NCBI GenBank assembly: GCA_020348925.1
Contig: CP070758.1
Span: 576,469 to 640,468 of the forward strand
Length of the DNA stretch: 64,000 nt
Direction: 5' to 3'
From: Gemmatimonadota bacterium
Lineage (GTDB): Bacteria > JBHIER01 > G020348925
Shown here: in pieces, positions 182 to 55,008 of the stretch
Numbering within the stretch: position 1 is the first letter of the stretch
Layout: each line of letters opens with the position of its first letter
The notes under the pieces: generated by a model
The model's input: only the letters and a program-made list of their open reading frames with translations
What the model was told of the DNA's origin: nothing
Databases searched by the model: none
Translations under genes and position numbers: made by a program

Positions 182-2571
182 GGAGTGATACCCAGGATGT
201 GGTTGACCACAGCCAGCACGTCGAGCACGTCGGTGCCACCGTCGCCGTTGGCGTCCCCTCTCGTCCCCTCGCACGTGCCGCCGCACAAGCCCGGCCAACT
301 GATGGTAGCCCGAATGATGGCGTCGCAGTCCTGGTTTCCTTCCGCCGTAATATGTTTCCATTCATCTTTCTCGAACTCGAAGGAATTCGAGGGTGGATCC
401 GGATCGACGGCATAGGACAGCCGGATGGGATAATCCGTATCCTGGGTGATAACCTCGGCCCAGGTCCAGAAGACACCGCTCATGCACCTCAATTCCTCGT
501 ACCCCGAAAGATCAAGACCGTACCAGTCTTCTCCGTTCCAGGCATTCTCGATTTCGGGGAGCGCATCCTCAGGCACGTGCATCTCGATGGGATCAATGAG
601 GTCCGGACCCGGCGTCGTATCCGTACCCGCAGCCATGACGTGAAGCCTGACCGTGCCTATCCCGCTGGGGAACTGGAACGCCGCTTCCACAAGATTGAAG
701 GTGGGAATGTCGTCCGGCGGAACGAAGCGCATGGCCGGTCCCTCACCGATACCCCAGTTCCCGATCCAGCGGGTCCTGTAATGGTGATCCATCAAGATTC
801 CCTGATTAGGGGGAGAGACGTACACCCAGGCCGACTGCAAACTGTCGTTGGGCGGCCAATCGTCCGGCAAAAACTGATAGGCCAGAACGCGATAGACGCC
901 CTCCTCGGCCGGCGTCCAGTCGAAACTGAAGACCTGCTGCTGACCGGCAAGCAGAATGCCCTGAAAGGCCGTCGTCGGAGCAATGATCACCGTGTGGATC
1001 GAATCGCCGCCCATGACAGTCCAGGTCGTATCCTCCACTTGATAGAAGAAGAAGGCGTTGATGTCCTCCAGGCCAAAATTCCACAGCAAAAGATCAATCT
1101 GGGTCGTGTAATCCGCCGTATTCGGGAAGGGAATATCGATCCGCTGCACACCGGCGTCCTGGGCCGGCGCGCCTCGGGCTTCCAAAAGAAAATCATCGAT
1201 GAACAGACCCGATCCGTTCCCACCGTCGTCATTTCCATCCGTCTGAGGAAAAATTCGTATCTTGATCGAATCTGACCCGGCGTATCTCGCCAGATCCAGG
1301 GTCCCATTGTAAATGGTATCCTCGTTCATCTGTGCCCAGAAGGGATTCCTCGGGTTCCCCTCCTCGGTGGTATCCGCGGCGAACTCATCGAACCGCATGT
1401 AGTCGGTGGTCATGTCCGTCCACAGGATCCCATCGGTCGTTATCTCGACGCCGTAGTTGTCGTCCAAAGTGTTGTCATCGTCACCGTCCGCATCCGGCAT
1501 ATCGCAATAGACCCAGAAGGTGATCCAGCCGAACATGCCGTTCAGTTTCAACCAGGGCGTCTCCAGATAATTTGATGAAATATCCGGAACATCGTCGGCG
1601 TCAATGTGAAAGCTGTGGGTGGGACTGTGAGCATTGGTCTCGGTGAGCGAATAATAGTCACCTCTGATCACATTGGAAGGGATCAAATTCTGCTGGTCGT
1701 CACCGTTGTCGAAGAATATATTCCCCAACCCCGGGTCATCAATGGAGAAATTGTCGATGAGAACCCCGTAAAAATCGGGTTGGTCCGCGGCGCCAGGACA
1801 CTCGGTCCCGCCTGGCAGGAAGAACGTCGAAAAGCACCAGTCGCTCACGAAGGCCACTCTGAGAACGATTTCCTGACCGACATAATCGCTCAGGTCGAAC
1901 TCCACATCGACCCAGCCGTGACTCGAATCGTTGAACACAGAGATACCACCGGGGTAGTAAATACCGTGAAACTCGTAGGCCCGGGACGTGTCCCACAGAG
2001 CGTTGTAGCCGCCGACAGGAATGAGAAAGTCATCGAAGCTCGCCCCGCCGTTGGTCGATACCCAGACATTCCACCCATCCCAGTCAATGGGGGGATCGGC
2101 AGATTCCGGATCCGACACCTCGATCGTCCAATTGGCCACCATGGTCAGGGTCGGGCTGGACGCTTCTCTGAGATCGACAACCGGCGTCTCCAAAACCTGA
2201 AACCACCAGTCACCATAACCGTACAACAGATTTTCGCCGTCATACCCGTAACCCGTCTCACCGCACCACCAGGCGTTCCCGTCGTAAAAACCTCCGATGA
2301 TTGGCGGGACATCACTGGTCGTGTGCCATTTCGTCCCGATATCCGTGCCGTCAACGGATTGAAACCCCTGGGCGCCACTCTCAAAATCAAAGGAGTACAG
2401 CGTCTCTATCTGGGCAGGTTCAAGAGCCTCAGAGAGCGACCGCATCTGCTGCGGCGCACTCTGGGAAACTGCTGGCGGCTCCTTTCGCTTCATCTCACCG
2501 GCAAACCCCTGTTGAACGATAACCAACGCAAGCAGGATCGAAAGTATTCCGACAAAAGATTTCATTTTCAT
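1..2571 (-). CDS. Large secreted multidomain protein (two InhA/MAM-like jelly-roll domains, CARDB-like domain, type I dockerin); runs off the left edge
   Basis: Absent from the ORF track because there is no stop in the window. Hand translation from ATG 2571 (GGAGG upstream) gives signal peptide MKMKSFVGILSILLALVIVQQGFA, then 'DGWNVWVSTNGG...GWVDVEFDLSDYVGQEIVLRVAFVSD', then dockerin 'GDANGDGGTDVLDVLAVVNHIL...GDCNGDGGIDVLDALGIVNVIL'. Frame is open to base 1. Confidence 0.85.
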   Translation of the reverse strand, partial: MKMKSFVGILSILLALVIVQQGFAGEMKRKEPPAVSQSAPQQMRSLSEALEPAQIETLYSFDFESGAQGFQSVDGTDIGTKWHTTSDVPPIIGGFYDGNAWWCGETGYGYDGENLLYGYGDWWFQVLETPVVDLREASSPTLTMVANWTIEVSDPESADPPIDWDGWNVWVSTNGGASFDDFLIPVGGYNALWDTSRAYEFHGIYYPGGISVFNDSSHGWVDVEFDLSDYVGQEIVLRVAFVSDWCFSTFFLPGGTECPGAADQPDFYGVLIDNFSIDDPGLGNIFFDNGDDQQNLIPSNVIRGDYYSLTETNAHSPTHSFHIDADDVPDISSNYLETPWLKLNGMFGWITFWVYCDMPDADGDDDNTLDDNYGVEITTDGILWTDMTTDYMRFDEFAADTTEEGNPRNPFWAQMNEDTIYNGTLDLARYAGSDSIKIRIFPQTDGNDDGGNGSGLFIDDFLLEARGAPAQDAGVQRIDIPFPNTADYTTQIDLLLWNFGLEDINAFFFYQVEDTTWTVMGGDSIHTVIIAPTTAFQGILLAGQQQVFSFDWTPAEEGVYRVLAYQFLPDDWPPNDSLQSAWVYVSPPNQGILMDHHYRTRWIGNWGIGEGPAMRFVPPDDIPTFNLVEAAFQFPSGIGTVRLHVMAAGTDTTPGPDLIDPIEMHVPEDALPEIENAWNGEDWYGLDLSGYEELRCMSGVFWTWAEVITQDTDYPIRLSYAVDPDPPSNSFEFEKDEWKHITAEGNQDCDAIIRATISWPGLCGGTCEGTRGDANGDGGTDVLDVLAVVNHILGITPLTGDAECRGDCNGDGGIDVLDALGIVNVILGTGSCAPGACKAELTPEAMEVLKSLRSYLS

Positions 2572-3112
2572 ATTTCCAACCCTCCATTCTAAAGTTGACG
2601 CAGTGAATTTGGATTGGTAAGAAACTGTGTCCTCAGCCCTCGAAGAAATGAAACCGATCTCCGAGGCTCGAGGTTCTTGGCAATAAGTTACTATACAGGT
2701 TTCCTCACAATATGAACGCAGACATCACCTCCTTCCGTTCCTTCACACTCCTTTCGATGTGTTGAAACGAACATATTCCAAGCCCTTAACGGACTATAGT
2801 CAGACGATTTCCTTCACCTCCTTTCGTGTGCCGTTCCATGAAAATAATATTTTGTTCACCCCCTTGAAGAATACACCGGGAATCAAAGAAGAAGTGCAAC
2901 CAAAAGCCGCCTTTGGAGCCGTATTGATGTTCATATTCAGGTCCGTTCAACCGCACATGGTATTCGCAAATTTTGTACCACAAGGAGAAGTCAGACATGA
3001 AAACTCATATTCTATTGAATAACAATGATTTACATTATTAAAGTGGATTCAGGGCAGAGGGAAAAAGATTGCATCGACGGCAACGGCTTGCACGAAGCGT
3101 GCCGGAATACTC

Positions 3113-40045: not shown

Positions 40046-41236
40046 TCAACACCCCTCTCTTTTATACTGCCTTGTGAGTTGATCCTTCTTCTCAATGAAC
40101 CGAGGCTGCCCGCCAAAATATCTGCTGATCTTCATTCTCTTTTCCTTCTGGTCCTCATTCATTTCTGCCGAACCGGAAATATCGGGAAAGAGTATCGTTT
40201 CCATCCACGCGTTCAATCCACCTTTCAAACAATATATTTCTTCCGTACCGATTTCACCCAGAGCCATTAAAGTCTTTCTCGGAACTGTTCCATACTGGGT
40301 GTATACGATAATAACCTCCTTGTCGACGACGGATCCATCGCGCACGGAACCTTCCGGAGCGTGTTTGGCAAACGGGATATGATACGTTTCAAACTGCATT
40401 TTCGAACGCACGTCCAATATATCGAAATCGTCTTTCTTCTCCATGATCCGATCAGCCAGCTCCTGTACCTCAAGATATCTCAGGGTGACCCCATCAAACC
40501 TTTCCTCCAATACTGTGATGCTTGAGCCACGATTGTCCTTCGATGGATTTCCGACGACTGCACTGAACAAGGCAAGCACAAGGGCACCGAGGGCAAGCAC
40601 TCTTTGAAGGCGAAACTTTCCAGGCGAAATGCCCATGGCGTGACTGTTCTGTACTCGAAGCTTTCTCCGTTCAATGAGTTCGGCTCCGGCGAACCCTCCC
40701 AGCGCCATCATTACAACGCCCAATACGATGAGCCCTTGAGGAATGTGAAGCAACCGGGGAAATGTGACATGCCCCCATGAGGTGAAATACAAGACATCGT
40801 CAAAAAGCGCGAAGAGCTCTCCGAAAGCAAAAATCCCGAAAAATATCCCCAGCAGGGCAACGAGCCCGTCAATCTTCCCCGTGGCCGAAGCCACCAGGCA
40901 CGTCCCCGGACAGAGACCCCCTATCACAAAACCGACGCCGAAAATCAAACCGGCAATGAGCTGAGGAAAAACATACGTGGGATTGACATACACGAGCGAG
41001 TCGTCAACAAGACCCAACCAGGAAAGCCAAAAAAGACCGAGCATCGCCGTGACAATTGCCGTGAACATAACTTTGAAAAACGCAAGATCGGTAAAGTAGA
41101 ACTGGGCCGCCATTTTCTTCGCATTCCCCAGTCCACCTCTTTCCAAGAAAAAGCCGAAGGCAAAGCCAACGGCTAAGGCGACAACCAAACTGGCATCGAA
41201 ATTGAAAAAACCGAATTTATAGAACGGGGCTGTCAT
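40046..41236 (-). CDS. YeeE/YedE sulfur-compound transporter half fused to a rhodanese-like domain
   Basis: Probable start MTAPFYKFG overlaps the upstream stop; FGFFLERGG, GLCPGT; ILDVRS...FETYHIPFA, LKGGLNAW; ends KREGC. Confidence 0.85.
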   Translation of the reverse strand: MTAPFYKFGFFNFDASLVVALAVGFAFGFFLERGGLGNAKKMAAQFYFTDLAFFKVMFTAIVTAMLGLFWLSWLGLVDDSLVYVNPTYVFPQLIAGLIFGVGFVIGGLCPGTCLVASATGKIDGLVALLGIFFGIFAFGELFALFDDVLYFTSWGHVTFPRLLHIPQGLIVLGVVMMALGGFAGAELIERRKLRVQNSHAMGISPGKFRLQRVLALGALVLALFSAVVGNPSKDNRGSSITVLEERFDGVTLRYLEVQELADRIMEKKDDFDILDVRSKMQFETYHIPFAKHAPEGSVRDGSVVDKEVIIVYTQYGTVPRKTLMALGEIGTEEIYCLKGGLNAWMETILFPDISGSAEMNEDQKEKRMKISRYFGGQPRFIEKKDQLTRQYKREGC

Positions 41237-41808
41237 GTCCACTGCCTCCTTATAAAATGAGCCGCTGCATAAGCACCTACAAAAACGGAAATCATGAAAA
41301 TCCAGCTCCCGACGCTCAGGAGCGCACCGCCGGTCAACGCCTGCCCACTGGTGCACCCGCGGGCCATCTTGGCGGCAAAACCCATCAGTGCACCACCACC
41401 GAATGCGAAGAACAACCTGCCGGTCGAAGAGATCCTCGGTCCTCGGATTATCGACACCCGTAATCTTCCGGCAAGAAGGCCGGAGAGAAATCCACCGACG
41501 AGAACACCGAGAATTTCGAAAACGAGCCAATCCTTCAGAGGATTTTTGTTTTCGAGATACGTGCTGTACATTCCGTTCGCCTGCGCATGCTCTGGAGCTA
41601 ACGTGTGAACAGCCGTTGACACGATCGCCGTGTATCCTCCCGAGGCCCCCAGGCCACGACCCATTATGACAAAAGCGGCCAGCAGCGTAAGCCCCAACCC
41701 GATCCCGGCGAGATACGGATTCCAATACCTCCGAGGTGCTTTCTTCGTTCTTTCTCCTTCCTCCAAATCCGAACCGTACGTCTCGATATCATCACGTTCA
41801 GAGTACAT
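41233..41808 (-). CDS. YeeE/YedE family transporter (half-size)
   Basis: YWNPYLAGIGLG, GLGASG, ARGCTSGQALTGG. Confidence 0.9.
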   Translation of the reverse strand: MYSERDDIETYGSDLEEGERTKKAPRRYWNPYLAGIGLGLTLLAAFVIMGRGLGASGGYTAIVSTAVHTLAPEHAQANGMYSTYLENKNPLKDWLVFEILGVLVGGFLSGLLAGRLRVSIIRGPRISSTGRLFFAFGGGALMGFAAKMARGCTSGQALTGGALLSVGSWIFMISVFVGAYAAAHFIRRQWT

Positions 41809-41827
41809 ACCCCCTCCTTGGAGTCTG

Positions 41828-42760
41828 TTATTGATACGGTCGTATCTTCACAGGCTCTATTACCGGTAAAGTCTTATCACCGGTCCATTCCTGAAATGAG
41901 CCGTCGTAAAAGCGAACGTCATACCCGAGATACTTGGCCGCAAAGTAAACCGGGCTGGCCCATATTCCCGTACCGCAGTAGATCACTAAAACCGAGCCCG
42001 GTTTCGCACCGTTGTCCGAAAATATCTCGGCCAATTCCGCCGCATCTTTCAATTGAGACGGCGAGTCCTCAGTCATCAACTCAAAGAACGGTATATTGAA
42101 TGCTCCGGCAATATGTCCGCGTCTCTTAGAATGACTATCCCTTTCAATACCGGTGTACACCTCCTCCGGCCTGGCGTCTATGATGACGATATTTGGATTT
42201 CTGATATTGTCGTTGATCCATTTTCCATCGACAAAAACATCCGCATTCGGTCGAGGAGTATAATTTCCGGTTAATGCTTCCGGTAATTCTGCTGTCAGCT
42301 TCCGATTTTCGGCTTTCCATCGAGGAAACCCACCTTGAAGCATCGACGTACTGTCCCCCAGACCAGCATAATCCAGGGTGAGGAGAAGGCGGGTGGCCAA
42401 CGAAATTCCTCTTGATTCCGCATAATAGACCACAATCCTTGAAGTGTCACTCACCCCTGCTGATTTCAGAACGGAATCGAGTTTTGCGATGGGAGGCCTT
42501 TCGTGAAAGAGCCCATTCGGGGAATTCACAACAACCTCAAGCAGCGAAAAAATACGCGCACCAGGAATATGCTCCTTGTCATACCCCTCCTTTCTCCCGA
42601 CATGCAGGAGCAACAGAGAAGGATCGGCCAAGTGTTCTTCCAACCATTGCGTCGTGACAAACATTGATTCAACCGGACTTTTGCCGGAGACGGTTGATAT
42701 TGAAATGCATGAAAAGATGAGAATGGCTGCGATCGTAATCCTAAATCCCGGTTTATTCAT
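41828..42760 (-). CDS. Periplasmic two-domain sulfurtransferase (rhodanese/MST-like)
   Basis: Signal peptide; HIPGA; IIDARP; GHIAGA; active loop YCGTGIWAS; YDGSFQEW. Confidence 0.92.
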   Translation of the reverse strand: MNKPGFRITIAAILIFSCISISTVSGKSPVESMFVTTQWLEEHLADPSLLLLHVGRKEGYDKEHIPGARIFSLLEVVVNSPNGLFHERPPIAKLDSVLKSAGVSDTSRIVVYYAESRGISLATRLLLTLDYAGLGDSTSMLQGGFPRWKAENRKLTAELPEALTGNYTPRPNADVFVDGKWINDNIRNPNIVIIDARPEEVYTGIERDSHSKRRGHIAGAFNIPFFELMTEDSPSQLKDAAELAEIFSDNGAKPGSVLVIYCGTGIWASPVYFAAKYLGYDVRFYDGSFQEWTGDKTLPVIEPVKIRPYQ

Positions 42761-42853: not shown

Positions 42854-44746
42854 TCAATCGAGCCTGGTTGCCGGCTGGTCTATACCGTTCTGGTGCAGCA
42901 CGAGGTGGGTGACTTGACCACGGCCGTCTTTCACAAACGTCAATTGCGCATCAATCAAGGCATAACAGAAGTCCGTCTCCGACTCCGCGTACATCTCGAG
43001 CTCCTGCTGACCCGTGAGCTGTGAGTAGAGTTTCCTCCCTTCAGCTTTGACGGAAAGAATGATCCCCGGAACGAACTCATACCGACCGGCGTAGGTTCGG
43101 AGAATTTCCGGATCCAATTCAATCACTTTGCGTCCGGCCGGTGGCTGAGTCTTTTGTGCGGCCGGCTTCCGTGTGTCGGCTTGGGTGGCAGGGGACGATT
43201 CCGTCAGATGTTCACGGGAGAGCATATGATCGAGATTTGCAATTCCCAGGGCCCCCCAAGCGATCACCGTTGCGGAGTGTTTCTGGTACTCGGGAACAAC
43301 CATATCATAGGTGTCGAATTGCGTGTGATGGCATCTCCAGTACGGGGTATCCCCCGACTGATCCCACATAAAGGACGGCACACCGGCCCCCAGAAAAACC
43401 ATGTGATCGCTCATACAAAATGCAGCGCGAGTCGAGCCACAGCCCGCATGTAAGGCCGCTTTTCCGCCAGGGGACGCCTCGGGGCTTCCGTTGCCCGAAG
43501 CGCATGACGGTGTCCTCGGGTTGGGATTGCAGCAGCTTGTAGAATACAAAGGCAGGCGGTCCACCTGTTCTATGTCAAAGGGCATATCCTGGTTCAGGGT
43601 TCTGACAGGAGAAAATATCCCCTCAAAATCTTCCACCATAGCCTCGGTGGCGAGAATGCCGGAAATGTAGTCGCTCCCGTAGTCCATGTTCAGGACGGCC
43701 GAGATTTGTGGCATCAGCTCTGAGTGATCGGCCACATACCCCTTGGAACCGAACAAGCCTTGCTCGTGACCGCCGAAGAGAATAAAGCGAATCGTTCTGC
43801 GGGGCCTGGCTCCGGATTCCATCAGTATTCGTGCCGCTTCCATGGCCGCGGCGACCCCTGTCCCGTTGTCGCAAGCGCCGCTGGCCCCATCCCAGGAATC
43901 CAGATGAGCCCCAACGATCACATATTCATGCGCCAGGTCCGTCCCGGGAATTTCGGCCACCACATTGTAGATGGGAATGGGACCCTTCTTAAAGTAATTC
44001 CGGATGTCAAAGGCGAGAACGACCTCTTCATTTTCAGATATGTAATTCGCAATCTCCTTCCACTCCTGTCCCGGGAGGATGATCACAGGAGTCTCCGGCA
44101 ACGCTTCCCATTCAATAAGATAGTTGCCGAAGGATTGCAGGAGCTCATCATCCACTGATGGAATGAGTACACCGGCTAGAGTGAGATTGAGTTCCTGTCC
44201 CTTTTTCAAATATTCGGCGCTCCTGCCTCTTTTTTTGTCGGGATCCCATACGATCCAAGATCCTTGAAATTCCGAACGTCTCGTCTCCAGTTCATCCACC
44301 GTCTCTGGCCCCATGACGGCACGCGCCACAACCCGACCGCTTGTTCCCGCTGTCCACGCCGGTGTGGTGAAATGGAGATCCTGGGTCACAGGGTTCATGA
44401 TGGATCCGTACGATTGCCCTCGATTGAAGCCGACCGGCATCTCAGCGCACTTCTCCAAATGGACGTTTGTCAAGCCGAAGCTTTGAAACCTGTCAAGGGC
44501 CCATTCACAGGCATTCCGCAGGTTGTCGGAACCCGTCAAACGCGGACCGATCCTGTTGGTCAGATGATCCAGGTGCTCCATGACTCTGTTGTCGTTTCTA
44601 CCAATTGTAAGAATGCGCTCCTGAAGATCCTGACCGTCGACGAGGGCGGATGTGCCGCAGAGGTATCCCGAAATAATAAAAATGATCACTATCATCAAGC
44701 CTGAGTAAGACCTCATAGTGACGAGACTTTCTCTTCCTTTTCTCAT
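42854..44746 (-). CDS. M28-family aminopeptidase homolog with Cys-rich insert and C-terminal DUF3471-like domain
   Basis: IGPRLTGS, GAHLDSWD, DNGTG, FGGHEQGLFGS, NMD, SDH, HHTQFDT; YAGRYEF domain. Confidence 0.9.
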   Translation of the reverse strand: MRKGRESLVTMRSYSGLMIVIIFIISGYLCGTSALVDGQDLQERILTIGRNDNRVMEHLDHLTNRIGPRLTGSDNLRNACEWALDRFQSFGLTNVHLEKCAEMPVGFNRGQSYGSIMNPVTQDLHFTTPAWTAGTSGRVVARAVMGPETVDELETRRSEFQGSWIVWDPDKKRGRSAEYLKKGQELNLTLAGVLIPSVDDELLQSFGNYLIEWEALPETPVIILPGQEWKEIANYISENEEVVLAFDIRNYFKKGPIPIYNVVAEIPGTDLAHEYVIVGAHLDSWDGASGACDNGTGVAAAMEAARILMESGARPRRTIRFILFGGHEQGLFGSKGYVADHSELMPQISAVLNMDYGSDYISGILATEAMVEDFEGIFSPVRTLNQDMPFDIEQVDRLPLYSTSCCNPNPRTPSCASGNGSPEASPGGKAALHAGCGSTRAAFCMSDHMVFLGAGVPSFMWDQSGDTPYWRCHHTQFDTYDMVVPEYQKHSATVIAWGALGIANLDHMLSREHLTESSPATQADTRKPAAQKTQPPAGRKVIELDPEILRTYAGRYEFVPGIILSVKAEGRKLYSQLTGQQELEMYAESETDFCYALIDAQLTFVKDGRGQVTHLVLHQNGIDQPATRLD

Positions 44747-44838: not shown

Positions 44839-46002
44839 CTATTCTCCAGTAAGGAATGCTTCGATCTTTTCAATCACCGGTTTCGCGCCGAGATCATAAT
44901 TTGACATGACAGCCACAGTATACCCGGCATTCATGTACATGGCAAGGTGGGAATGTATCCCTGCAGCACCTCCACTGTGACCGATAATGCGTTGGCCGTT
45001 TACGATTCTTTCCTGGAAGAGATAGGCATATTTACGGTTCAAATCCTTCTTGATTTCTCCAGTCATCGTAGGAAGAGCTTCAACGACCTTTCCCTTGGTC
45101 AGTATTTCAAAGTGTTTCTTGTCAAGAAGCTTGTAATTCCGGAGTGCAATATCGAAGCGAAGAAGATCCTCGACGGTCGAATACCCGCCCCCTGCCGGGC
45201 ACCCCTTGGTGGGATTGGCAAAAAGATTATTGTGCCAGCTCTCGTATTGTCCACCGAAAATATTCATTTTGGTGTATCCAATGGCCAGATTCGGAACTGG
45301 TTCATCCATCTCGTAGCACTCGGTATCGATCATCCCTGCCGGTTCGGTCACATGCGATCGGATATAATCGTGATAACTCATTCCGGATATCCTCTCTATG
45401 ATGAGCCCGAGGACCAGGGGTCCGCAATTACTGTATTGAAATCGTTCTCCCGGCTCGAAATCGAGGGGTTTTGTGTTTGTCAAATCATCGAAATCCTTGA
45501 CGGTTTTCAACTGCGCCCATTGAGGGTTCTGAAAAAATTCCATCCAGTAGAGCCCCATACCGGAGGTGTGCGTCAGGAGATGGTGTATTGTGACTTTCTC
45601 TCTCACCTCCCGATTGGGGTAGTCGGGAAGATGCGCCCCGACGTAATCATCATAAGAAAGCTTTCCCCCTTGGACAAGCTGCGCTATCGCCACGCCGGTA
45701 AACATCTTGTTCATGGAACCGAGGTTGAACTTTGTGTCGACCCGGTTGGGAACGCCGTATCGTTTGCACGCTTCTCCTACGGCTCTTTTGTAAATCGGAA
45801 CGCCGTCTTTGGCAACGAGGACTGTTCCCGAGAAACGATCCTCCTCAACAAGTCGGTCGAGACACTCATCAATGACAGTGTTTATCTCTTGAGTTGTTTC
45901 TTCTATGGGAGACGCCTGCAGAAAAATTCCAGAAGAGATAAAGACTATGAAACCACATATGGAGACCGATGTGATTGTATGTAATAACAACGAGAAATTC
46001 AT
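44839..46002 (-). CDS. Serine hydrolase, beta-lactamase/D-aminopeptidase family
   Basis: GSMNK (SxxK), LLTHTSG, YSN, GHSGG. Confidence 0.92.
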   Translation of the reverse strand: MNFSLLLHTITSVSICGFIVFISSGIFLQASPIEETTQEINTVIDECLDRLVEEDRFSGTVLVAKDGVPIYKRAVGEACKRYGVPNRVDTKFNLGSMNKMFTGVAIAQLVQGGKLSYDDYVGAHLPDYPNREVREKVTIHHLLTHTSGMGLYWMEFFQNPQWAQLKTVKDFDDLTNTKPLDFEPGERFQYSNCGPLVLGLIIERISGMSYHDYIRSHVTEPAGMIDTECYEMDEPVPNLAIGYTKMNIFGGQYESWHNNLFANPTKGCPAGGGYSTVEDLLRFDIALRNYKLLDKKHFEILTKGKVVEALPTMTGEIKKDLNRKYAYLFQERIVNGQRIIGHSGGAAGIHSHLAMYMNAGYTVAVMSNYDLGAKPVIEKIEAFLTGE

Positions 46003-46049: not shown

Positions 46050-47324
46050 TTAAATTAACCGGCGGAGTTTCAAACGGACTCTCTTTCGTTCTTCATCGCG
46101 CAGAATTTCAAGAGTTACCCAATCGCTTTCATTCTTCAACAACTCTTCGACGTCATCCTCCTTCACATGAACTGCCGGCAGATCATTAATTTCAGTGACG
46201 ACATCATTTGCCCGCAGCCCGGCTTCACTTGCAGGGGAATTCGGCACAACACGGTCAATTATAAAAGTACCCTTGTCAGTTTTTGTCAATTGTACTCCGG
46301 CCATGTTGAATTCGAAGGGATCGTTGTAATGCCTGTTGGGTTCCAGGATCATGAGCTCGTTGGTATAGTCGAAGATGACATGGAATCGACGAAGAACATC
46401 CGTCCCTAAATTTCCCTCCTTTCCCACCCCTCCCCCACCACAGGCAGCAAGTGCACCCGTGCTGAATGATGTCACAACATCCTCCAACGTGTATGGATCG
46501 AGAGTGAGACTCTTGATGCGACCGACGTATCCGTCCACATCACCACCGACACCTGTTCCCAAACGAAATTCGATGGCATTGTCAGGAACAACAATGCTCT
46601 CATGCGCTCCGACACTCAACGAAAGTGCATGGGTAGCCCCAAGATCCACAACAAGTTGCAGTGGAACTCTCTTTCCATCCGTCATTTCCACCGTGCAATC
46701 CAGATACGGAAAACCGCCATTGAAGGAGAGCGGCAGTTCCCGCCCGGAACCTGAGTATTTGAACCCCTCTGGTTCGGTCAGACGAATCACCATCTTCTCG
46801 AAGTCGATCTCAACAACAAAAAGACCGAACAGCGAATACCCGATGACTCCATCCATCTCAAATCGATTCTGAAAGGGATTGTTCGGCATCACGATAACGT
46901 TTTGATCCGTCAACTCCAAGCCGGGAAACTGAATCGTAACTCCCGTTGAAAAGTCGGCAGGAACCGGTTCACCTCCAGCACCACCGACCATGATCTGGCC
47001 CACGGACTCGAGATCAAGCTCCTCCACTCGTGCGTTGTCAAACAACATCGCACCAGGGATGGGACACCCGGTGTCTAAAACCAGTCGAAAATTTTTTCCA
47101 CCCACTTTCGCCTGAACAAGAACTTTATTCCTTTCCAACTCGAAAGGGATTGTTGCACTTCCATTATCGGATAACATCTTATATGTCCCACTCGAAAAAA
47201 CATTACCGCATTGTGCTTGTGTATTGGAATACATATTGGCGAGCAGGAAGACGGAAGTAGAAATTGTGATCAGTGTAAGTACCCTCATTCGTTTCCCCTT
47301 CAAAGGTGTTTGTTCTTCACTCAT
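46050..47324 (-). CDS. Secreted two-lobed aspartyl protease with PDZ domain
   Basis: LVLDTG and VVDLG, DGVIG, GNLG; PNSPASEAGL PDZ. Confidence 0.88.
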   Translation of the reverse strand: MSEEQTPLKGKRMRVLTLITISTSVFLLANMYSNTQAQCGNVFSSGTYKMLSDNGSATIPFELERNKVLVQAKVGGKNFRLVLDTGCPIPGAMLFDNARVEELDLESVGQIMVGGAGGEPVPADFSTGVTIQFPGLELTDQNVIVMPNNPFQNRFEMDGVIGYSLFGLFVVEIDFEKMVIRLTEPEGFKYSGSGRELPLSFNGGFPYLDCTVEMTDGKRVPLQLVVDLGATHALSLSVGAHESIVVPDNAIEFRLGTGVGGDVDGYVGRIKSLTLDPYTLEDVVTSFSTGALAACGGGGVGKEGNLGTDVLRRFHVIFDYTNELMILEPNRHYNDPFEFNMAGVQLTKTDKGTFIIDRVVPNSPASEAGLRANDVVTEINDLPAVHVKEDDVEELLKNESDWVTLEILRDEERKRVRLKLRRLI

Positions 47325-47406
47325 TTTTGCGAAAAGGGATGCAACTGATCAGAGAAAACTCAGTTACATCCCTGTTTTTTGGTGTAAGATAAGTCTAAAA
47401 CGATCC

Positions 47407-49467
47407 TCAGATACTGCGGCCGCAGCAGCTTTGCGTTTTCGAGGATGAACTTCCAGGCGGACAGCAATCCTTGCTCTGAGTCGGGCAGCAGCCGCTCTCC
47501 CCCTGCGGACAACAATCACCATTTCTTTGTCCGGCCGTGCAACATCCTGACGGACAACATCCGCTTGCTTTCGGATCCGGAGTCCCTGTTGTTTTCGAGC
47601 TGTGAGGATAATACCCCGTCTCAACTGATGTGGATTTGATCAGTGAGGATTGTTCCTCGAACAGGAACGAACCGGAGCCGGCAGGCTTCGATGACGTTTC
47701 ATCGTCAACCAAGTTTTCCCTTAAAAGCAGATGATCAAGGTTGGCAACGCCGAGTGCCGCCAGGGCAATCACTGTCGCGGAGTGCTTCTGGTATTTTGGA
47801 ATCACCTGCTCGTACGTGTCCCTTTGCGTATGTGGATAGTATGGAACAGGATTCTCACCCTGCTGCATCCACATGAAAGCCGGCACACCGGCCGCCAGAA
47901 ACTGAGCGTGATCGCTCGAACCCACCGCCTTGACAATCCGCTTGCGAGTAGTAGTAGCTTTCTCCTCAGCGGTCACGTTCTGTTTCGTAAAGGCTTGCCC
48001 TCCGCACCCACCACCTCCACATCCCCCACCTCCCTCTGTGTTTTTCACCAGGGACTGTCCTCCGCAGCCGCCACCCCCACCACCGCATCCTCCTCCACCC
48101 CCGCCTGAATCCGTCACAAGGGAGGGGCTTCCGCAGCCACCACCGCCGCATCCGCTATCGGCTATTTTTTCCTTGATAACAGTTTTGCCAACACCACCAA
48201 CCATCAGTGGAGAACGGGCCGGTCCGTTTCCACAGCAGTCTGTTATTGTCTGGGGCAGGCTCTCGACCAATCCAATTCCGAAAGGCATATCTTCATTCAG
48301 AGATTTGACCGGGGCGAAAATCTCCTTAAAATCCTCCAGCATCGGCTCGGTGGCAAGAATGCCTGAGATGTAATCGGCACCCTGGTCCATGTTGAACATG
48401 GCCGAAATTTTATCCAATTGATCTGAGTGGTCCGTTACATAGGCCCTCGAACCCAGCATGCCCACTTCTTCCCCAGCGAAGAGGACAAAACGGATTGTTC
48501 GTCGGGGACGGATTCCGGCCTCCGCGAGGATTCTCGCTGCCTCCATGGCAGCAGCCACACCAGTACCATTATCCGCAGCTCCCGTGGCTCCGTCGTGAGA
48601 ATCAAGATGCGCTCCGACGATCACATACTCATCCGGCAGCTCGGTACCGGGGATGTCTGCGACCACATTATAAATCGGTATCGGCCCTTTCTTGAAATAG
48701 TTCCGGATATCGAACTCAAGCGTAACCTCCTCACCTTCTCCCAACAGATCGGCTATCTCTTCCCATTCCTCCTGCAGAAGGATTATGCTGGGAGTCGTGG
48801 GTAGGTCGTCCCACTCGAGGCCTCGATAATTGCCAAAAGTATGAATGAATTCCCCCGAAGAAGGAAGGATGACACCTGCTACGTCAAAGTTCAGTTCATC
48901 CCATTTTTCGATGTACGATGCATTCTTCTCCGGGTCGTCGAAGGGACGCCACAGTATCCATCTCCCTTCGATATCCGCACCCATCTTCTCCAGGTCATCC
49001 TCGGATTCGGGGGCAAGTACAGCTCGAGCACTCGTACGACCACGAGTCCCCGCAGTCCAGGCATGGGTCGAGAAGTGAAGGCGCTTGTTCTTCGGCGACA
49101 GAATGGCTCCTGATGAGGTGCCGCGATTAAAGCCGATGGGAATTTCCGCAACCCGCTCCAGATGAGCATTGGACAGGCCGAAGCGTTTAAACTGATCGCG
49201 GGCCCATTCACTGGCTGTTTGATAGTTGTCCGAACCGGTTTGACGGGGTCCTATCCGGTTCGTAAGATGGTTCAGATGGTCCATGACTCTGCTGTCTTTT
49301 GTACCGACAGAAATGATCCGGTCATGAACAACGCCGCTTTCGATGAAGCTGGACTTTCCCGCATGGCTCTTTGCCATCATAGCGTTGTTGGATGTACACG
49401 AGATGATACCTGCGGCCAGAAACACAAAAGCAGCGAAATATACAAGAGTTCTCGATATTTTTCTCAT
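47407..49467 (-). CDS. M28-family lipoprotein aminopeptidase with Gly/Cys-rich insert and Cys-Cys-rich tail
   Basis: Start MRKISRT after GAGGAGG; lipobox IISC; GAHLDS, DNGTG, FAGEEVG, NMD, SDH; tail with six CC pairs. Confidence 0.9.
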   Translation of the reverse strand: MRKISRTLVYFAAFVFLAAGIISCTSNNAMMAKSHAGKSSFIESGVVHDRIISVGTKDSRVMDHLNHLTNRIGPRQTGSDNYQTASEWARDQFKRFGLSNAHLERVAEIPIGFNRGTSSGAILSPKNKRLHFSTHAWTAGTRGRTSARAVLAPESEDDLEKMGADIEGRWILWRPFDDPEKNASYIEKWDELNFDVAGVILPSSGEFIHTFGNYRGLEWDDLPTTPSIILLQEEWEEIADLLGEGEEVTLEFDIRNYFKKGPIPIYNVVADIPGTELPDEYVIVGAHLDSHDGATGAADNGTGVAAAMEAARILAEAGIRPRRTIRFVLFAGEEVGMLGSRAYVTDHSDQLDKISAMFNMDQGADYISGILATEPMLEDFKEIFAPVKSLNEDMPFGIGLVESLPQTITDCCGNGPARSPLMVGGVGKTVIKEKIADSGCGGGGCGSPSLVTDSGGGGGGCGGGGGGCGGQSLVKNTEGGGGCGGGGCGGQAFTKQNVTAEEKATTTRKRIVKAVGSSDHAQFLAAGVPAFMWMQQGENPVPYYPHTQRDTYEQVIPKYQKHSATVIALAALGVANLDHLLLRENLVDDETSSKPAGSGSFLFEEQSSLIKSTSVETGYYPHSSKTTGTPDPKASGCCPSGCCTAGQRNGDCCPQGESGCCPTQSKDCCPPGSSSSKTQSCCGRSI

Positions 49468-49594
49468 AAGCACCTCCTCTCTCATAAAATTACCATGACT
49501 GTCTGACGGCTTTTTCCATCTCAATTCCATGTCTCAGTTTATAACATTCGGACCACCTCCTATTACATCAGATCCCAACTTTATTATTCTCATC

Positions 49595-50053
49595 TTATAT
49601 CCTTGATTCTTGCACTGATCGAACCATGACCGTTGCCGTCTCGGGGCAGATTGTTGAAAATTCAGACGATTCTTTGATTTCGTCCGGGACAGAAGATCGA
49701 TTAACAGCACGAAATCCGAACCGTTTGAAATAGTGGTCGGCATCTGTGGTAATAAGATACACGTCTGACAATTCATTCGCTCTGGCCCATGACAGGCGAT
49801 TCTTTACAAGAGCTTCCCCGATCGATCTCTTTCGCCATTCAGAGTCAACCGCGCAGGAGCGCAGTAAACCGTGCGACCCATAAACTTCGATCCCGGCGAC
49901 TCCGATGATGTGATCTTGGGACTCAGCAACACAGTAGGACTCCTCAAAATGCTCATCAACGCCTTCAAGGGGAAGATTGGAGTCCAACAGCAATCCCTTC
50001 ACACTCTGTTCATCTTTACCCCGTGCAGGTCTTATGTGATATGATCGTTCCAT
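49595..50053 (-). CDS. arsN2: ArsN2-family GNAT N-acetyltransferase
   Basis: LP.EGV, GIEVYG..GLLRS.AV, YLITTDA..YF.RFGF, S.EF..ICP.TA.VM. Confidence 0.8.
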   Translation of the reverse strand: MERSYHIRPARGKDEQSVKGLLLDSNLPLEGVDEHFEESYCVAESQDHIIGVAGIEVYGSHGLLRSCAVDSEWRKRSIGEALVKNRLSWARANELSDVYLITTDADHYFKRFGFRAVNRSSVPDEIKESSEFSTICPETATVMVRSVQESRI

Positions 50054-50330: not shown

Positions 50331-52739
50331 TTACTCATACTTGATTGCATTTACCGGATTCGTCTTGGCGGCCTTGACAGCCTGATAGCTCACAGATACC
50401 ATCGCGATACATATGGCAAGAATTCCTGCCAGAAAAAACGTCTCCAGACCCATATGCAACCGATAGGGATAATTCTCAAGCCAGCGATACATGACGTAGT
50501 ATGCAATCGGCCAGGCAAGAATATTTGCGATTGCCACCAGAATCAGAAACTCTTTTGAAAACAATTGAACAATGCCCCCAATGGAAGCACCGAGGACTTT
50601 CCGAACTCCGATCTCCTTTGTCCGCTGCTCTACGGCGTACGAGGACATGCCGAACAGACCAAGGCACGCGAGAAAGACCGCCAATACACTGAAAGAGAGT
50701 GCAATATTACCCAGGTTCTCTTCGGCGCGATATTGGCCCTCAAGGGATTCGTCCAGGAAGTAGTAATCGAAGGGCCGACCGGGAGCGATTTCCTCCCATT
50801 TTTTCTTCAACTGAGCTATCGTCGTTGGTACATTGTCAGATGCGATCCGAACTGCAATAAGATTGAAACTGTGAGCGGCATTGCCGATAAAAAGTGGTTC
50901 GATTTCAATGTGGAGGGAGGCCAGATGAAAATCCTTGACCACACCGACGACCCTTCTCGGTGACCATTCCACCTGGCCCGCTCTCAGATTGACACGTCGC
51001 CTGATGATCTTTCCGATCGGGTCCTCCCAGCCGATTTCCCTGGCAGCCGTTTCATTGATGATTGCTGACTCCATGCTGTCCGTCGCAAATTCGGCAGAGA
51101 AATTCCTCCCGGCCACCATATCCATACCCATCGTTGAAATGAACCTGTCGTCAATATCCATCATCCTCATCATCTTTGTTTCATCTTCCGAAAATCCCTC
51201 CGGCAGAAAAGGTGCCATCATTCCGCCTCGGCCGGGGATCCCTGTTGATGCACTGACGTTTCTCACTCCAGGCAAACGGGCAAGCTCATTTCTGATTCCA
51301 TGAATGGGCAAACGTTCGGAATCACCAACATTTGGTAAAACAACTACGTGCTCTTTGTCAAAACCGAGCATTTTGTTTTTCATAAACCGTATCTGTTCGA
51401 ATACCGTCATCGTTCCAATGATGAGAGCGATGGAAATTGCAAACTGTGTGACGACGAGAACACTCCGAAATCGAGACTTCGAGGAACCGGTTCGAACACG
51501 ACCTTTCAAAGCCCTGACCGGTTGAAAGGATGACAGAAAGAAGGCGGGATAGCTGCCGGCGATAAACCCGACGAAGAGCGCCAATCCGACAAATCCAGGA
51601 AGGATCCACGGTTGTCGTATGTAGTTCACATGCAATTCGCACCCGGCGAGGGAGTTAAATATAGGCAGAGCCAAAGGGAGGAGTATTGATGCAAGAAAGA
51701 CAGAAAGCAAGCCGCAGATTATGGATTCACAAAGAAATTGCCCCACCAATTTGCCACGACTGGCTCCCAGTGTCTTTCTCATCCCGACCTCGTTGGCGCG
51801 CGTCGCCGAACGGGCCGTGGTGAGATTGATGAAGTTGATACAGGCTATCAGCAAAATAATGAAGGCAATCCCAGAGAACAGGTATACATAGACAATATCT
51901 CCTCTTCCTCCGGGATCGCTCTGGAGATTCGAGCGGAGATGGATGCTGGTTATGGGTTGGAGAAACAGCTCCAATGTGCCTCCGACCGCTCTCAACTTTT
52001 CGCCGGAGTATGTTTCGACGAAGTCGGGGAGCTTTCGCTCCAGGTTCTTGGGGTCGCTTCCTTGAGCGAGCAGAAGATACGTATAATAGCCCAACCATCC
52101 CCAGACCTCCATTCCTGGGCGCTTCTCAGCGTACAGCGTTTCGAAGGAACAGAGCACATCAAACGTAATATGCGAATTCTGAGGCACATTATGTATGACG
52201 CCCGTAACGGTGAAGTTCGTCTCTCCGTCGAATTCGAGAATCTTACCAACCGGATCTTCTTCATCGAAGAACTGACGGGCCACATCTTCGGTAAGGACGA
52301 CCGAATGGGCGGTCAAGAGCGCAGAAGCAGGATCACCGCTTATCATGGGGAATGTCAACACTTCAAAAATCGAGCTGTCGGCATAGCGAACCTCCTCAAT
52401 TTGGAGTTGCTTGTCTCCGTGCTTCACTGAGGAACTGGACTCAGGCGTAATCCTGACGGCGTTGACAACCTCCGGATAATCCCGGATCAGACCAAGTGCC
52501 ATAGGAGGGCTCGTCATCGGCGCACGCCGATTCGCTCCACCGAGAGTGAGATCCGTGCCCAGACGGTATATTCGATCCGCTTTCGTATGAAACCGGTCAA
52601 AACCCAGTTCATTGGCAATCCACAACATAATCAAAAGGCAGCACATGATACCAATAGCCAGACCCGCTATGTTTAAAAAGGAATACATTTTAAACTTTCT
52701 GAAATTTCGAACGGCGACTTTCACATAGTTTTCATACAT
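50331..52739 (-). CDS. MacB/FtsX-family ABC transporter permease (duplicated)
   Basis: SFLNIAGLAIG, ACINFINL, EVGMRKTLGA, RTKEIGVRKVLGAS, NPVNAIKYE. Confidence 0.93.
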   Translation of the reverse strand: MYENYVKVAVRNFRKFKMYSFLNIAGLAIGIMCCLLIMLWIANELGFDRFHTKADRIYRLGTDLTLGGANRRAPMTSPPMALGLIRDYPEVVNAVRITPESSSSVKHGDKQLQIEEVRYADSSIFEVLTFPMISGDPASALLTAHSVVLTEDVARQFFDEEDPVGKILEFDGETNFTVTGVIHNVPQNSHITFDVLCSFETLYAEKRPGMEVWGWLGYYTYLLLAQGSDPKNLERKLPDFVETYSGEKLRAVGGTLELFLQPITSIHLRSNLQSDPGGRGDIVYVYLFSGIAFIILLIACINFINLTTARSATRANEVGMRKTLGASRGKLVGQFLCESIICGLLSVFLASILLPLALPIFNSLAGCELHVNYIRQPWILPGFVGLALFVGFIAGSYPAFFLSSFQPVRALKGRVRTGSSKSRFRSVLVVTQFAISIALIIGTMTVFEQIRFMKNKMLGFDKEHVVVLPNVGDSERLPIHGIRNELARLPGVRNVSASTGIPGRGGMMAPFLPEGFSEDETKMMRMMDIDDRFISTMGMDMVAGRNFSAEFATDSMESAIINETAAREIGWEDPIGKIIRRRVNLRAGQVEWSPRRVVGVVKDFHLASLHIEIEPLFIGNAAHSFNLIAVRIASDNVPTTIAQLKKKWEEIAPGRPFDYYFLDESLEGQYRAEENLGNIALSFSVLAVFLACLGLFGMSSYAVEQRTKEIGVRKVLGASIGGIVQLFSKEFLILVAIANILAWPIAYYVMYRWLENYPYRLHMGLETFFLAGILAICIAMVSVSYQAVKAAKTNPVNAIKYE

Positions 52740-52826
52740 CCGCAATTTATCCTAAAGTATCTATCCCATTCGTATCAGTTATTGTTTCCTGAGAGAATGC
52801 AAACGACATTCCGAAGTTTCAATGTT

Positions 52827-53516
52827 TTAAAGATGAAATGTATTCACATCGTTTTCAGCAATAAGCCTACCGTCAAAAATGTGGACTGTTCTGTTGCAGA
52901 ACTCCGCGTATGCTGGGGAATGCGTCACCATAAGGATGGTCGTTCCACCCTCATTCAACATTTTCAACAGATTCATTACATCATCGCCATGTGTTGAATC
53001 GAGATTTCCTGTCGGCTCATCAGCCAGAATAAGTTTTGGATGAGCGACGACGGCCCGAGCCACGGCAACCCTTTGCTGCTGGCCACCTGATAATTGCACA
53101 GGAAAATGATTTCTCCGGGCCATTATCTCCATTCGATCAAGAATTTCATCCACACGCCTCTTCCGTTCAGAGCCGGCTATTCCTAAATAGAGAAGGGGCA
53201 GTTCGACATTCTCGAAGACGGTCAACTCGTCGATCAGATTGAAGCTTTGAAAAACAAAACCGATATTGCCTTTTCGAAACTGAGCTCGACGCCTTTCCGA
53301 GTACTGTGTGACATCTTCACCGAGTAAGAGATATGTTCCCTCCGTCGGATTATCCAGAAGACCCAACAGATGGAGAAGAGTCGATTTACCGCATCCGGAA
53401 GGTCCCATAATGGCCGTGAACTCGCCCTCTTTCACCTCTAAATTGACGCTGTCGAGGGCGGTCGTTTCAACCTCATCAGTGTAAAACACCTTTTTCAAAT
53501 TGTCTGTTCGAATCAT
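52827..53516 (-). CDS. ABC transporter ATP-binding protein (LolD/MacB type)
   Basis: GPSGCGKST, LSGGQQQR, ILADEPTGNLD, VTH. Confidence 0.95.
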   Translation of the reverse strand: MIRTDNLKKVFYTDEVETTALDSVNLEVKEGEFTAIMGPSGCGKSTLLHLLGLLDNPTEGTYLLLGEDVTQYSERRRAQFRKGNIGFVFQSFNLIDELTVFENVELPLLYLGIAGSERKRRVDEILDRMEIMARRNHFPVQLSGGQQQRVAVARAVVAHPKLILADEPTGNLDSTHGDDVMNLLKMLNEGGTTILMVTHSPAYAEFCNRTVHIFDGRLIAENDVNTFHL

Positions 53517-53676: not shown

Positions 53677-54165
53677 TTAAGGTGAGGAAAATCGTTTTGA
53701 TGCTGCGCGCGCCAGTCGAGCGACGAGACGGATAGTGGCCTGTCTTATGTCCGGATCGAAGTCAGTGATCATCTTCTTCATCTCACCGGCCAACTCCTTC
53801 TCAATCCTGTCATGGAGGTCCTTGCCCCGCTGAGTCACCTCAAGGCGCAAGGCCCGGCCATCTTTTGGATCCGCCGAGCGTTTGACGTAGCCTTTGCGCT
53901 CCAAGGAGTCAACGACTCTACTGGTCGTGCTTTTGTCGAGGAAAAGCTCGGCAGCCAGCATATTCAACGACATCGTGCCGAGACGAGAAAGTGCGTCTAT
54001 GGCGTAGCACTGGGTTATAGAAACATCCTGGTAGCAAATGCGTTTGCGGTCTCGAAACTGATACACCCGAACGAGCTCGCTCAAGGCCTCATGGAGCTCC
54101 CAGGCATCCTGTTCAAGGGTATTGCCCTGAATGAGACTTCCCGATTCTTTCGCGGTTGATGGCAT
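53677..54165 (-). CDS. MarR-family regulator with Cys-bearing N-terminal motif
   Basis: YQFRDRKRICYQDVSITQCY; LAAELFLDKSTTSRVVDSLERKGYV.R..DPKDGR. Confidence 0.92.
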   Translation of the reverse strand: MPSTAKESGSLIQGNTLEQDAWELHEALSELVRVYQFRDRKRICYQDVSITQCYAIDALSRLGTMSLNMLAAELFLDKSTTSRVVDSLERKGYVKRSADPKDGRALRLEVTQRGKDLHDRIEKELAGEMKKMITDFDPDIRQATIRLVARLARAASKRFSSP

Positions 54166-54196
54166 AAATTCACTCCTCACTCGAATCGCACATTAT

Positions 54197-54239
54197 CATT
54201 GTTACTAACAACAATAATGTCCGACGCGCCTCTTGTCAA
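54197..54239 (-). promoter_or_regulatory. marR promoter with an overlapping degenerate operator
   Basis: Minus strand TTGACA-17-TATTGT; CATTG-N7-CAACA (54197-54213) overlaps the -10. Confidence 0.6.
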
Positions 54240-54498: not shown

Positions 54499-55008
54499 AT
54501 GATTGAAGAACTCAAAGAGATGCGAGATGTAGCCGTCGAGGATTTTGGGAAAGCTTACAATAACTGGGGATTGAGCAAACTGAAGGGCAGAATCGTCGGA
54601 TTACTCCTTTTCAACCAGATGCCTCTATCCTTGGATGATATTGCCAACGAGCTTCATGTTACAAAGGGTTCTGTGAGCACTGTCGCTCGTCAATTGGAGG
54701 AGGGCGGTCTCATTCGTAAAGTCTGGGTGAAAGGGGATAGAAAAGATTACTATGAGATTGTATCGGATGTTTTTAGCACTACGAGCGAACACAATCTCAA
54801 ACTGTTAAAGGATAATCTACTCATTGCACAGAAGTATAAAAACTTTTTGTCGAGAATACTGGATTCGGCTTCACCTGAGGACAAATTGGAACTGGAGGTC
54901 TATCTCGACAGAATGACCGAAATGCAAGAGTTCTATGCTATGTTGGTCGATACGTTTGAAAGATTTATCACAGAGTGGAAGGGGAAATTCGAAGTAGCTA
55001 TGCAGTGA
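54499..55008 (+). CDS. GbsR/MarR-family transcriptional regulator
   Basis: WGLSKLKGRIVGLL...PLSLDDIA..L.VTKGSVS...VKGDRKDYY. Confidence 0.88.
   Translation: MIEELKEMRDVAVEDFGKAYNNWGLSKLKGRIVGLLLFNQMPLSLDDIANELHVTKGSVSTVARQLEEGGLIRKVWVKGDRKDYYEIVSDVFSTTSEHNLKLLKDNLLIAQKYKNFLSRILDSASPEDKLELEVYLDRMTEMQEFYAMLVDTFERFITEWKGKFEVAMQ

Follow-up and report, generated by a model that had tools for sequence, protein, structure and literature searches.

A cysteine-studded M28 peptidase linked to MarR and ArsN2 genes in a Gemmatimonadota bacterium

AAP from Vibrio (Aeromonas) proteolyticus (PDB entries 1amp and 1rtq) and the PA-domain protein "Peptidase M28" from Shewanella amazonensis (PDB entry 3iib) are described peptidases of the M28 family. 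Here we analyze a relative encoded on the minus strand of a 64,000-nucleotide stretch (termed the window) of contig CP070758.1 from a Gemmatimonadota bacterium. This protein carries two cysteine-rich add-ons, a loop just before the conserved SDH motif and a C-terminal tail, and its gene stands next to that of an ArsN2-type acetyltransferase. Our favored reading, to which we assign a probability of about 0.45, is that the add-ons present free thiols on the cell surface that capture trivalent arsenic or antimony, within an arsenic-responsive unit.

3iib has the same fold and domain order as the window protein (phmmer E value of 3.1e-31, residues 79 to 386), and its residues 20 to 335 align with it, the metal-ligand and catalytic columns being conserved. 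However, about 35 residues separate the D382 strand from SDH in 3iib, versus about 148 in the window protein, and 3iib has no Cys tail. Some homologs are labeled carboxypeptidase Q by the Joint Genome Institute, which we cite as a given name only. A profile search of the PDB aligned Y225-A-C227-S-D-H230 of AAP with V-G-S-S-D-H of the window protein, the insertion lying just N-terminal of SDH. In AAP, the active-site loop V is stabilized by a C223-C227 disulfide (PMC4012986). From this alignment and the position of loop V, we place the insertion, by analogy, in a loop at the mouth of the active site, a position from which it may influence catalysis in addition to any role in chelation. The stapled loop of AAP has 5 residues, versus 111 residues with 8 Cys in the window protein, in which an AAP-type staple was not found, Ser538 aligning with C227. 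AAP also lacks a PA domain, a tail, and any ars context.

Metallothioneins are characterized by a Cys content of about 15 to 30%, by the lack of aromatic residues, and by CC or CxC motifs. The tail resembles them in its composition (12 Cys in 51 residues, or 23.5%; CC motifs; no F, W, Y, or H; abundant Gly, Ser, Pro, Lys, and Thr) and in having no predicted metal-free fold. In contrast to these small free proteins, the tail is fused to a 650-residue enzyme that is probably exported, consists almost solely of CC pairs instead of mixed C-x-C and C-x-x-C motifs, and has just two orthologs as relatives. None of the three Pfam families matched is a metallothionein family. Closely spaced Cys, which serve ArsR, ArsD, and ArsI as soft ligands, are also present in the add-ons, and ArsD and ArsI carry vicinal Cys pairs. 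As(III) is typically bound by closely spaced Cys in arsenic proteins, three nearby Cys in the case of ArsR (PMC13674352). These proteins are cytoplasmic with one defined site each, whereas the window protein, which has no sequence similarity to them, is probably exported and displays 10 Cys pairs in segments predicted to be disordered.

The cysteine-rich loop and tail

Of the 21 Cys in the open reading frame (ORF), one belongs to the lipobox (position 45), 8 belong to the loop, and 12 belong to the tail, whereas residues 62 to 425 and 537 to 612 contain none. All 20 Cys of the mature protein are confined to the two add-ons, and the catalytic core is Cys free. The insertion spans 111 residues between the conserved L425-P426 and G537-SSDH. 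It starts with a CC pair (432-433), followed by C-x4-C, C-x6-C, and C-x4-C, and each of these three units combines a Gly-rich C-x(4-6)-C with a short hydrophilic spacer. The original prediction had described such an insert of about 110 residues, a C terminus with six CC pairs, and an intact EE motif (E354-E355), and we confirmed all three, the C terminus exactly as quoted. It had also proposed that the loop expanded by internal duplication, which is apparent in the protein from the three units but is weak in the DNA, where just a 15-bp unit in 2.3 copies was detected (TRF). Its coordinates, 47407 to 48260, cover the tail, the linker, the C-terminal catalytic part, and the loop but not the whole gene.

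Misassembly of the loop was checked by aligning Logan contigs of four sediment-metagenome runs to the gene. A single contig of run X1, which is possibly the source sample, covers the gene from end to end and differs by 4 substitutions, without gaps. Contigs from a second study match positions 47948 to 48075 (part of the loop, no differences) and 47389 to 47593 (tail, 1 difference). X2 contigs break at 48075 to 48130, and the middle of the Gly run (the central 55 bases) is bridged by X1 alone. Two orthologs from other assemblies, P0003 (75% identical) and P0004 (73%), carry the same loop and tail. Given the second-study contigs and these orthologs, the Cys add-ons are genuine, an artifact being rejected as far as the contigs show. 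All runs containing the sequence are sediment metagenomes, with no RNA data set listed among them.

The Cys of both add-ons are better kept in the orthologs than the residues around them. In the tail, 12/12 Cys are retained in P0003 and 10/12 in P0004, versus 29/39 and 20/39 of the other residues. In the loop, each ortholog retains 7/8 Cys, versus 65/103 (P0003) and 53/103 (P0004) of the other residues. This pattern suggests that selection acts on the Cys of the loop and of the tail. The P0004 tail has one extra CCP unit.

We then evaluated how widespread the add-ons are. Among the 34,336 six-frame ORFs of at least 60 residues in the 5.04-Mb genome, only one other has at least six CC pairs within 60 residues, a 136-residue poly-Cys frame that appears to be non-coding, and no other plausible gene with such a tail was found in this genome-wide scan. 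A tail-only search of a 5.8-billion-protein set (length setting, "longer") yielded 29 candidates, of which the self copy and P0003 alone carry the tail. The ESM Atlas gave no usable feature match for it, and its structural matches all had template modeling (TM) scores below 0.35. On these results, we dropped the idea of a shared module or sorting signal. The suggestion that cleavage releases Cys-rich peptides found no support either, as no cleavage site, partner, or free-standing tail homolog was found. The DCCG motif was considered as part of an Fe-S-binding CCG domain, which we rejected in view of the lack of a Pfam match and the predicted export of the protein.

The loop, in turn, is not unique to the window protein. 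A HMMER scan of 1.84 billion representatives returned 523 proteins at E values of at most 1e-30. In an alignment of 19 relatives, those with 46 to 59% identity have an insertion of 70 to 110 residues, the three to five Cys of which occur within DCG, GCGG, and GCG motifs, and those of the Planctomycetota type have no insertion. The segment from GEE to SDH is short (fewer than 90 residues) in 163 of the 208 parsed relatives. Minimal members of the Cys-loop clade show a bare CC seven residues before SDH (P0125, P0151, P0138, P0159, and P0178). The window insertion falls between this clade CC and SDH; C432 and C461 are nearly invariant and are adjacent in the minimal relatives. Other lineages have loops of about 50 residues composed of Ala, Pro, and Ser with eight or nine Cys, and these distant relatives (P0137, P0179, P0212, and P0256) also have a Cys one or two residues before SDH. 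Members of the clade also repeatedly carry a short C-terminal Cys tail, often with CCG and basic residues at the end (P0125, P0151, P0181, and P0159). As Cys loops and short Cys tails recur across the clade, we regard the window protein as the extreme form of two recurrent traits. Its loop elaborates a clade-wide CC/GCG loop with a nearly invariant first Cys (C432), which would have been triplicated and padded with Gly in the window lineage.

Pfam M28 (PF04389) matched with 129.7 bits (cut-off, 21.3) in two stretches, with the insertion between them. Translation likely starts at M22 (position 49467), since the database copy of the protein (P0002) has 686 residues. Bacterial lipoproteins follow the lipobox rule [LVI][ASTVI][GAS]C. 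The sequence IISC, with Cys45 after a hydrophobic helix, fits this rule, and the corresponding sequences are LISC in P0004 and LQSC in P0003. The protein is therefore, as had been proposed from the start, an M28 lipoprotein by its sequence features, probably exported and lipid anchored. The columns of H308, D320, E355, D382, and H567 show no variation in alignments of 19, 58, and 26 sequences, and that of E354 shows almost none. By homology to AAP, we take the former five to be the zinc ligands and E354 to be catalytic, and with these columns conserved, the enzyme looks active and di-zinc.

An AlphaFold2 monomer model, built from the 58-sequence alignment and without metals, shows an M28 fold with an inserted PA domain. 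Its 391 best residues have a predicted local distance difference test (pLDDT) score of at least 90, and residues 62 to 425 are mostly above this value. The top Foldseek match was 3iib (E value of 8.5e-30, TM score of 0.68 by target), followed by 2ek8, the transferrin receptor, and GCPII. The loop, with a pLDDT below 50 at residues 431 to 438, 445 to 470, and 474 to 527, the linker (residues 613 to 656), and the tail are all predicted to be disordered, and in this metal-free model the tail is not docked in the active site as a cysteine switch might be.

Conserved linkage to MarR, ArsN2, and ArsM

With tblastn, we looked for homologs of the window neighbor genes in 165 related loci, those among the relatives that were recovered with their gene context. 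ArsN2 lies directly upstream of M28 in L131 and L098, and in L092 it lies upstream at a distance of 3 kb; a MarR homolog with 54 to 65% identity to the window MarR is present in L001 (identical to L089), L131, and L092. MarR homologs with 47 to 65% identity precede M28 or ArsN2 in other genomes. Among the 14 independent Cys-loop-clade loci with upstream DNA (the window, L131, L092, L090, and L171 to L180; L098 duplicates L173), 12 have a MarR homolog and/or ArsN2 nearby, and 7 have ArsN2. Neither gene was found in the 59 loci whose M28 has fewer than two Cys in the loop segment, nor in the 9 Planctomycetota-type loci with a segment of normal length. In the window genome, ArsN2 is single, with 1 match above the cut-off.

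The linkage spans two GTDB phyla, that of the window genome (two genomes in our set) and that of the L001 genome (151 genomes). In the latter phylum, 11 of the 151 genomes harbor an M28 relative, and MarR and/or ArsN2 stand directly upstream in 9 of the 10 Cys-loop loci. The ArsN2 model matches 29 genomes of this phylum, 24 of them above the cut-off. MarR was found in 13 of its 30 ArsN2 loci, an ArsM domain fused or adjacent in 12, and M28 in 4. The gene order in L185 is MarR, an ArsN2-ArsM fusion, and M28, with the start of M28 overlapping the end of the fusion by 8 nucleotides. In L169, a MarR paralog precedes an ArsN2-ArsM fusion (NF008823, arsenite methyltransferase, 336.7 bits; cut-off, 263).

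Judged by its conserved co-directional neighbors, the M28 gene is probably a member of an ars operon. This arrangement is best explained by a MarR-(ABC exporter)-ArsN2-M28 unit in the arsenic-resistance gene repertoire, with M28 as its last conserved gene. Tail Cys are missing altogether from about half of the operon-linked relatives, so the tail is not essential to the function of the operon.

A MarR subfamily that responds to As(III) and Sb(III) via three Cys (MarR_ars) has been described upstream of arsN and arsV genes (10.1101/2021.08.12.456183), and the window unit likewise has MarR upstream of an arsN-type gene. The MarR homolog of L185, with an N-terminal ICC and a C-terminal CC, resembles by description the Cys36/Cys37/Cys157 arrangement of the Achromobacter MarR_ars. 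The word "peptidase" does not occur in the available text of that paper. A search of published full texts, with subscription journals and bioRxiv supplements outside its range, found no paper that links an M28 peptidase to an ars operon, and a full-text search for a metallothionein-like M28 peptidase yielded just an unrelated fungal genome paper. The Cys-only add-ons, the plastic active-site Cys loop, and the MarR-ArsN2(-ArsM)-M28 linkage thus appear to be new in the searched literature, the fold and the family being ordinary.

ArsN2-ArsM fusions, such as those at L169 49-1956 (-) and L185 773-2700 (+), with open frames of about 430 to 480 residues, seem to be common in the phylum of L001. L092 encodes at 2336-3103 (+) an ArsN2 of 255 residues with a C-terminal cupin-like domain, and it also keeps MarR, the PDZ protease, the beta-lactamase-family gene, and a Cys-tailed minimal M28.

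Gene neighborhood and other features

The features of the gene and of its surroundings are listed in Table 1. Two genes of an ATP-binding cassette (ABC) exporter (50331..53516) stand between MarR and ArsN2. They were not found beside M28 in the other loci covered by the tblastn comparison, chance ABC matches aside. A scan of the region for promoters and terminators gave sites no more numerous than in shuffled sequences.

Table 1. Features of the M28 peptidase gene and its neighborhood (positions in the window)
Feature	Position	Strand	Remarks
MarR-family regulator	53677..54180	-	First gene of the co-directional string
Promoter-like site upstream of MarR	54211..54239	-	10/12 consensus positions; weak
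ATPase gene of ABC exporter	52827-53516	-	DarD/LolD/MacB-like, below equivalog cut-off
FtsX/MacB-like permease gene of ABC exporter	50331-52745	-	ADOP/DarB-like, below equivalog cut-off
ArsN2-type GNAT acetyltransferase	49595..50053	-	Directly upstream of M28; NF040501, 146 bits (cut-off, 125)
Whole ORF, Cys-studded M28 peptidase	47407..49530	-	707 residues as longest frame; stop codon 47407-47409
Signal peptide and lipobox, residues 22-45	49396..49467	-	Helix 23-43 in model; Cys45, predicted lipidated Cys
N-terminal catalytic part and PA-like domain, residues 62-425	48256..49347	-	H308, D320, E354/E355, D382; no Cys
Gly/Cys insertion in predicted active-site loop, residues 426-536	47923..48255	-	8 Cys, 35 Gly, three C-x4/6-C units
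Vicinal pair C432-C433	48232..48237	-	C432 nearly invariant in Cys-loop clade
C-terminal catalytic part, residues 537-612	47695..47922	-	SDH motif, H567; no Cys
Predicted disordered linker, residues 613-656	47563..47694	-	73-77% identical in P0003 and P0004
Cys tail, residues 657-707	47410..47562	-	51 residues, six CC pairs in CCP/CCG-type units
Retropepsin-like protease with PDZ	46050-47324	-	Downstream, co-directional; recurs near M28 in L092
Beta-lactamase-family hydrolase	44839-46002	-	Downstream, co-directional; recurs near M28 in L092

A second regulator gene, at 54499-55008 (+), with a weak CudC-like match, is divergent from MarR across the 54.2- to 54.5-kb intergenic region, which has promoter-like sites on both strands. 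The genes at 40046-42760 (-), just downstream of the peptidase string, encode a secreted sulfurtransferase of the rhodanese type and, after it, two membrane proteins that resemble YeeE/YedE, of which the second carries a fused rhodanese domain. These genes resemble a set for sulfur or thiosulfate handling. We considered them as partners of the peptidase and discarded them, since none of the 165 related loci contains a homolog.

A paralogous M28 gene, at 42854-44746 (-), 3 kb downstream, encodes 630 residues with 58% identity over the core. This protein has a short loop with 5 Cys, starting with SCC, and a C-terminal extension of about 100 residues without a Cys tail. It reads G-H-E where the family reads G-E-E, with His at the position of the catalytic Glu. 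Elsewhere, the operon-linked M28 of L176 (G161:C144) has SDQ in place of SDH, the M28 gene of L131 (5653-7040, +) is split by a frameshift, and in-frame TGA (L173) and TAG (L177) codons stand inside the matches. Sequencing errors, decay, or recoding could account for the frameshift and for these codons.

Other Cys-rich ORFs were noted. Large secreted proteins with repeated CC-x-PDGSC...D..CC units are encoded at G000:C1 701843-708115, 736982-739039, 1231026-1233113, and 4772765-4775617. A small ORF at G000:C1 403532-404161 (+), with a dense Cys/Met/Gly/His N terminus and 18 Cys in about 200 residues, is a possible periplasmic metal binder.

Candidate roles of the cysteine add-ons

The state of the Cys depends on the redox setting. 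Profile searches of the window genome (96.3% complete, one contig) found no DsbA, DsbB, VKOR, or Thioredoxin_4 and no terminal oxidase (COX1 or cytochrome bd), with models that all match control genomes, and the organism looks anaerobic. DsbA together with DsbB or VKOR is present in bacteria whose exported proteins show an excess of even Cys counts, and in obligate anaerobes Cys tends to be kept out of the exported proteins (PMC12453122). With a crude home-made signal-peptide rule, which labeled 974 of 3,447 ORFs as exported and provides weak evidence, we found no excess of even Cys counts in the exported set (0.45 versus 0.47). As no periplasmic disulfide-forming enzymes were found in this apparent anaerobe, the add-on Cys most likely, although not certainly, remain free thiols.

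We propose that, outside the cytoplasm, these thiols would bind trivalent metalloids in the form of As(III), Sb(III), or trivalent organoarsenicals. The six-CC tail would serve as a metalloid sponge, and the loop beside the zinc site would provide a further binding site or act as a metalloid-sensitive lid on the peptidase. Thiol chelation had originally been guessed from the vicinal Cys pairs; the genomic linkage now lends it independent support, and we infer the binding itself. Several observations weigh against this proposal. The arsenic link is a two-step guilt by association, and ArsN2 itself was named as an ars-operon acetyltransferase clade nearer to N-acetylglutamate synthases and left uncharacterized (PMC6465285). 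The window MarR has two Cys nine residues apart and lacks the vicinal pair and the C-terminal Cys of MarR_ars, as compared with the description of the latter. The Acr3 pump of the window genome lies 420 kb away, and two clade loci (L090 and L179) show no linkage. The six-CC tail is present in only 3 known proteins, the window protein and its metagenomic orthologs P0003 and P0004, and the frequent lack of tail Cys among operon-linked relatives points in the same direction. Tyr has replaced Cys in the loop of P0003 and in the tail of P0004, and the crudely defined exported ORFs do not strongly avoid Cys (1.21% versus 1.51%).

The same Cys might instead be involved in disulfides, the loop Cys stapling the active-site loop, the CC/CCP tail cross-linking the protein to itself or to envelope proteins, or both acting as a redox switch. 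The precedents are the stapled loop of AAP and the keratin-associated proteins, whose CCxP repeats cross-link via disulfides; the even Cys counts of the window protein (8 and 12) and the near invariance of C432 and C461, adjacent in minimal relatives, would also fit. We nevertheless consider this improbable, given that no disulfide-forming enzymes or terminal oxidases were found and that Ser occupies the C227 position. In addition, the lost Cys of the orthologs are replaced by Tyr or deleted, giving odd counts such as the 7 loop Cys of P0003. The add-ons are predicted to be disordered, and the Gly-rich loop is unlike a compact knot; vicinal disulfides are moreover strained and rare. Another candidate role is that of a zinc antenna or reservoir. 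Some periplasmic metalloenzymes bear built-in metal-binding tails, and periplasmic Cu,Zn superoxide dismutases have His-rich metal-chaperoning extensions. In a similar manner, the tail and the loop would capture scarce Zn(II) in sulfidic sediment and pass it to the two-zinc site of the enzyme itself, the arsenic context being incidental or reflecting protection of the zinc site. This agrees with the need for two metal ions implied by the invariant ligands, with the predicted location of the loop right by the active site, with the metallothionein-like composition of the tail, and with the sediment origin of all runs and the anaerobic look of the genome. Yet it leaves unexplained why MarR and ArsN2/ArsM go with this clade and not with other M28 proteins from the same organisms or from similar ones. 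In addition, the loop of the paralog 3 kb downstream is short, this paralog lacks a tail, and the unit contains no zinc-uptake or zinc-regulator gene. We therefore find a zinc antenna doubtful.

The Cys could also serve in substrate recognition. The operon would then protect against a peptide-borne arsenical or another thiol-reactive antimetabolite. The exported M28 would cleave the carrier peptide extracellularly, with the CC at the pocket rim gripping the trivalent arsenic of the substrate, and any amino-acid warhead set free would be acetylated by ArsN2 in the cell. The long tail would be a lineage-specific extra. We know of no such peptide arsenical, and the scheme is wholly inferential, with no peptide transporter or biosynthetic gene in the unit. 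The element conserved in the clade is the CC, or its first Cys, at the active-site loop and not the tail, which this scheme would account for. The closest relatives of ArsN2 are amino-acid N-acetyltransferases, and arsinothricin, an amino acid containing arsenic, is acetylated by ArsN1 (PMC6465285). Control over genes that counter arsenic-containing antibiotics has been ascribed to MarR_ars (10.1101/2021.08.12.456183). On balance, we view such a function as very unlikely.

Returning to metalloid binding by the add-ons, a bolder version of it, which we regard as unlikely, is that Cys-loop M28 proteins form an undescribed class of arsenic-resistance proteins. These would be exported, metalloid-binding peptidases that operate with ArsN2 (and ArsM in some cases) under an As(III)-sensing MarR. 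The CC at the rim would recognize a trivalent arsenical or switch the enzyme, and in the window lineage a surface sponge of ten Cys pairs would have been added.

If such a class exists, the M28 partner would be the first handle on the substrate of ArsN2, a widespread acetyltransferase of arsenic operons for which we found no substrate description in the searched literature. If the add-ons bind metalloids, they would constitute a natural, enzyme-borne surface chelator, relevant to metal(loid) cycling in sediments and to scaffolds for bioremediation. For the M28 family, our analysis shows an unusually plastic, Cys-rich active-site loop in a well-studied peptidase fold. Finally, the conserved and translationally coupled exported peptidase, with its Cys pair at the active-site loop, suggests that arsenic defense in anaerobic sediment bacteria operates partly on extracellular peptides or amino acids.

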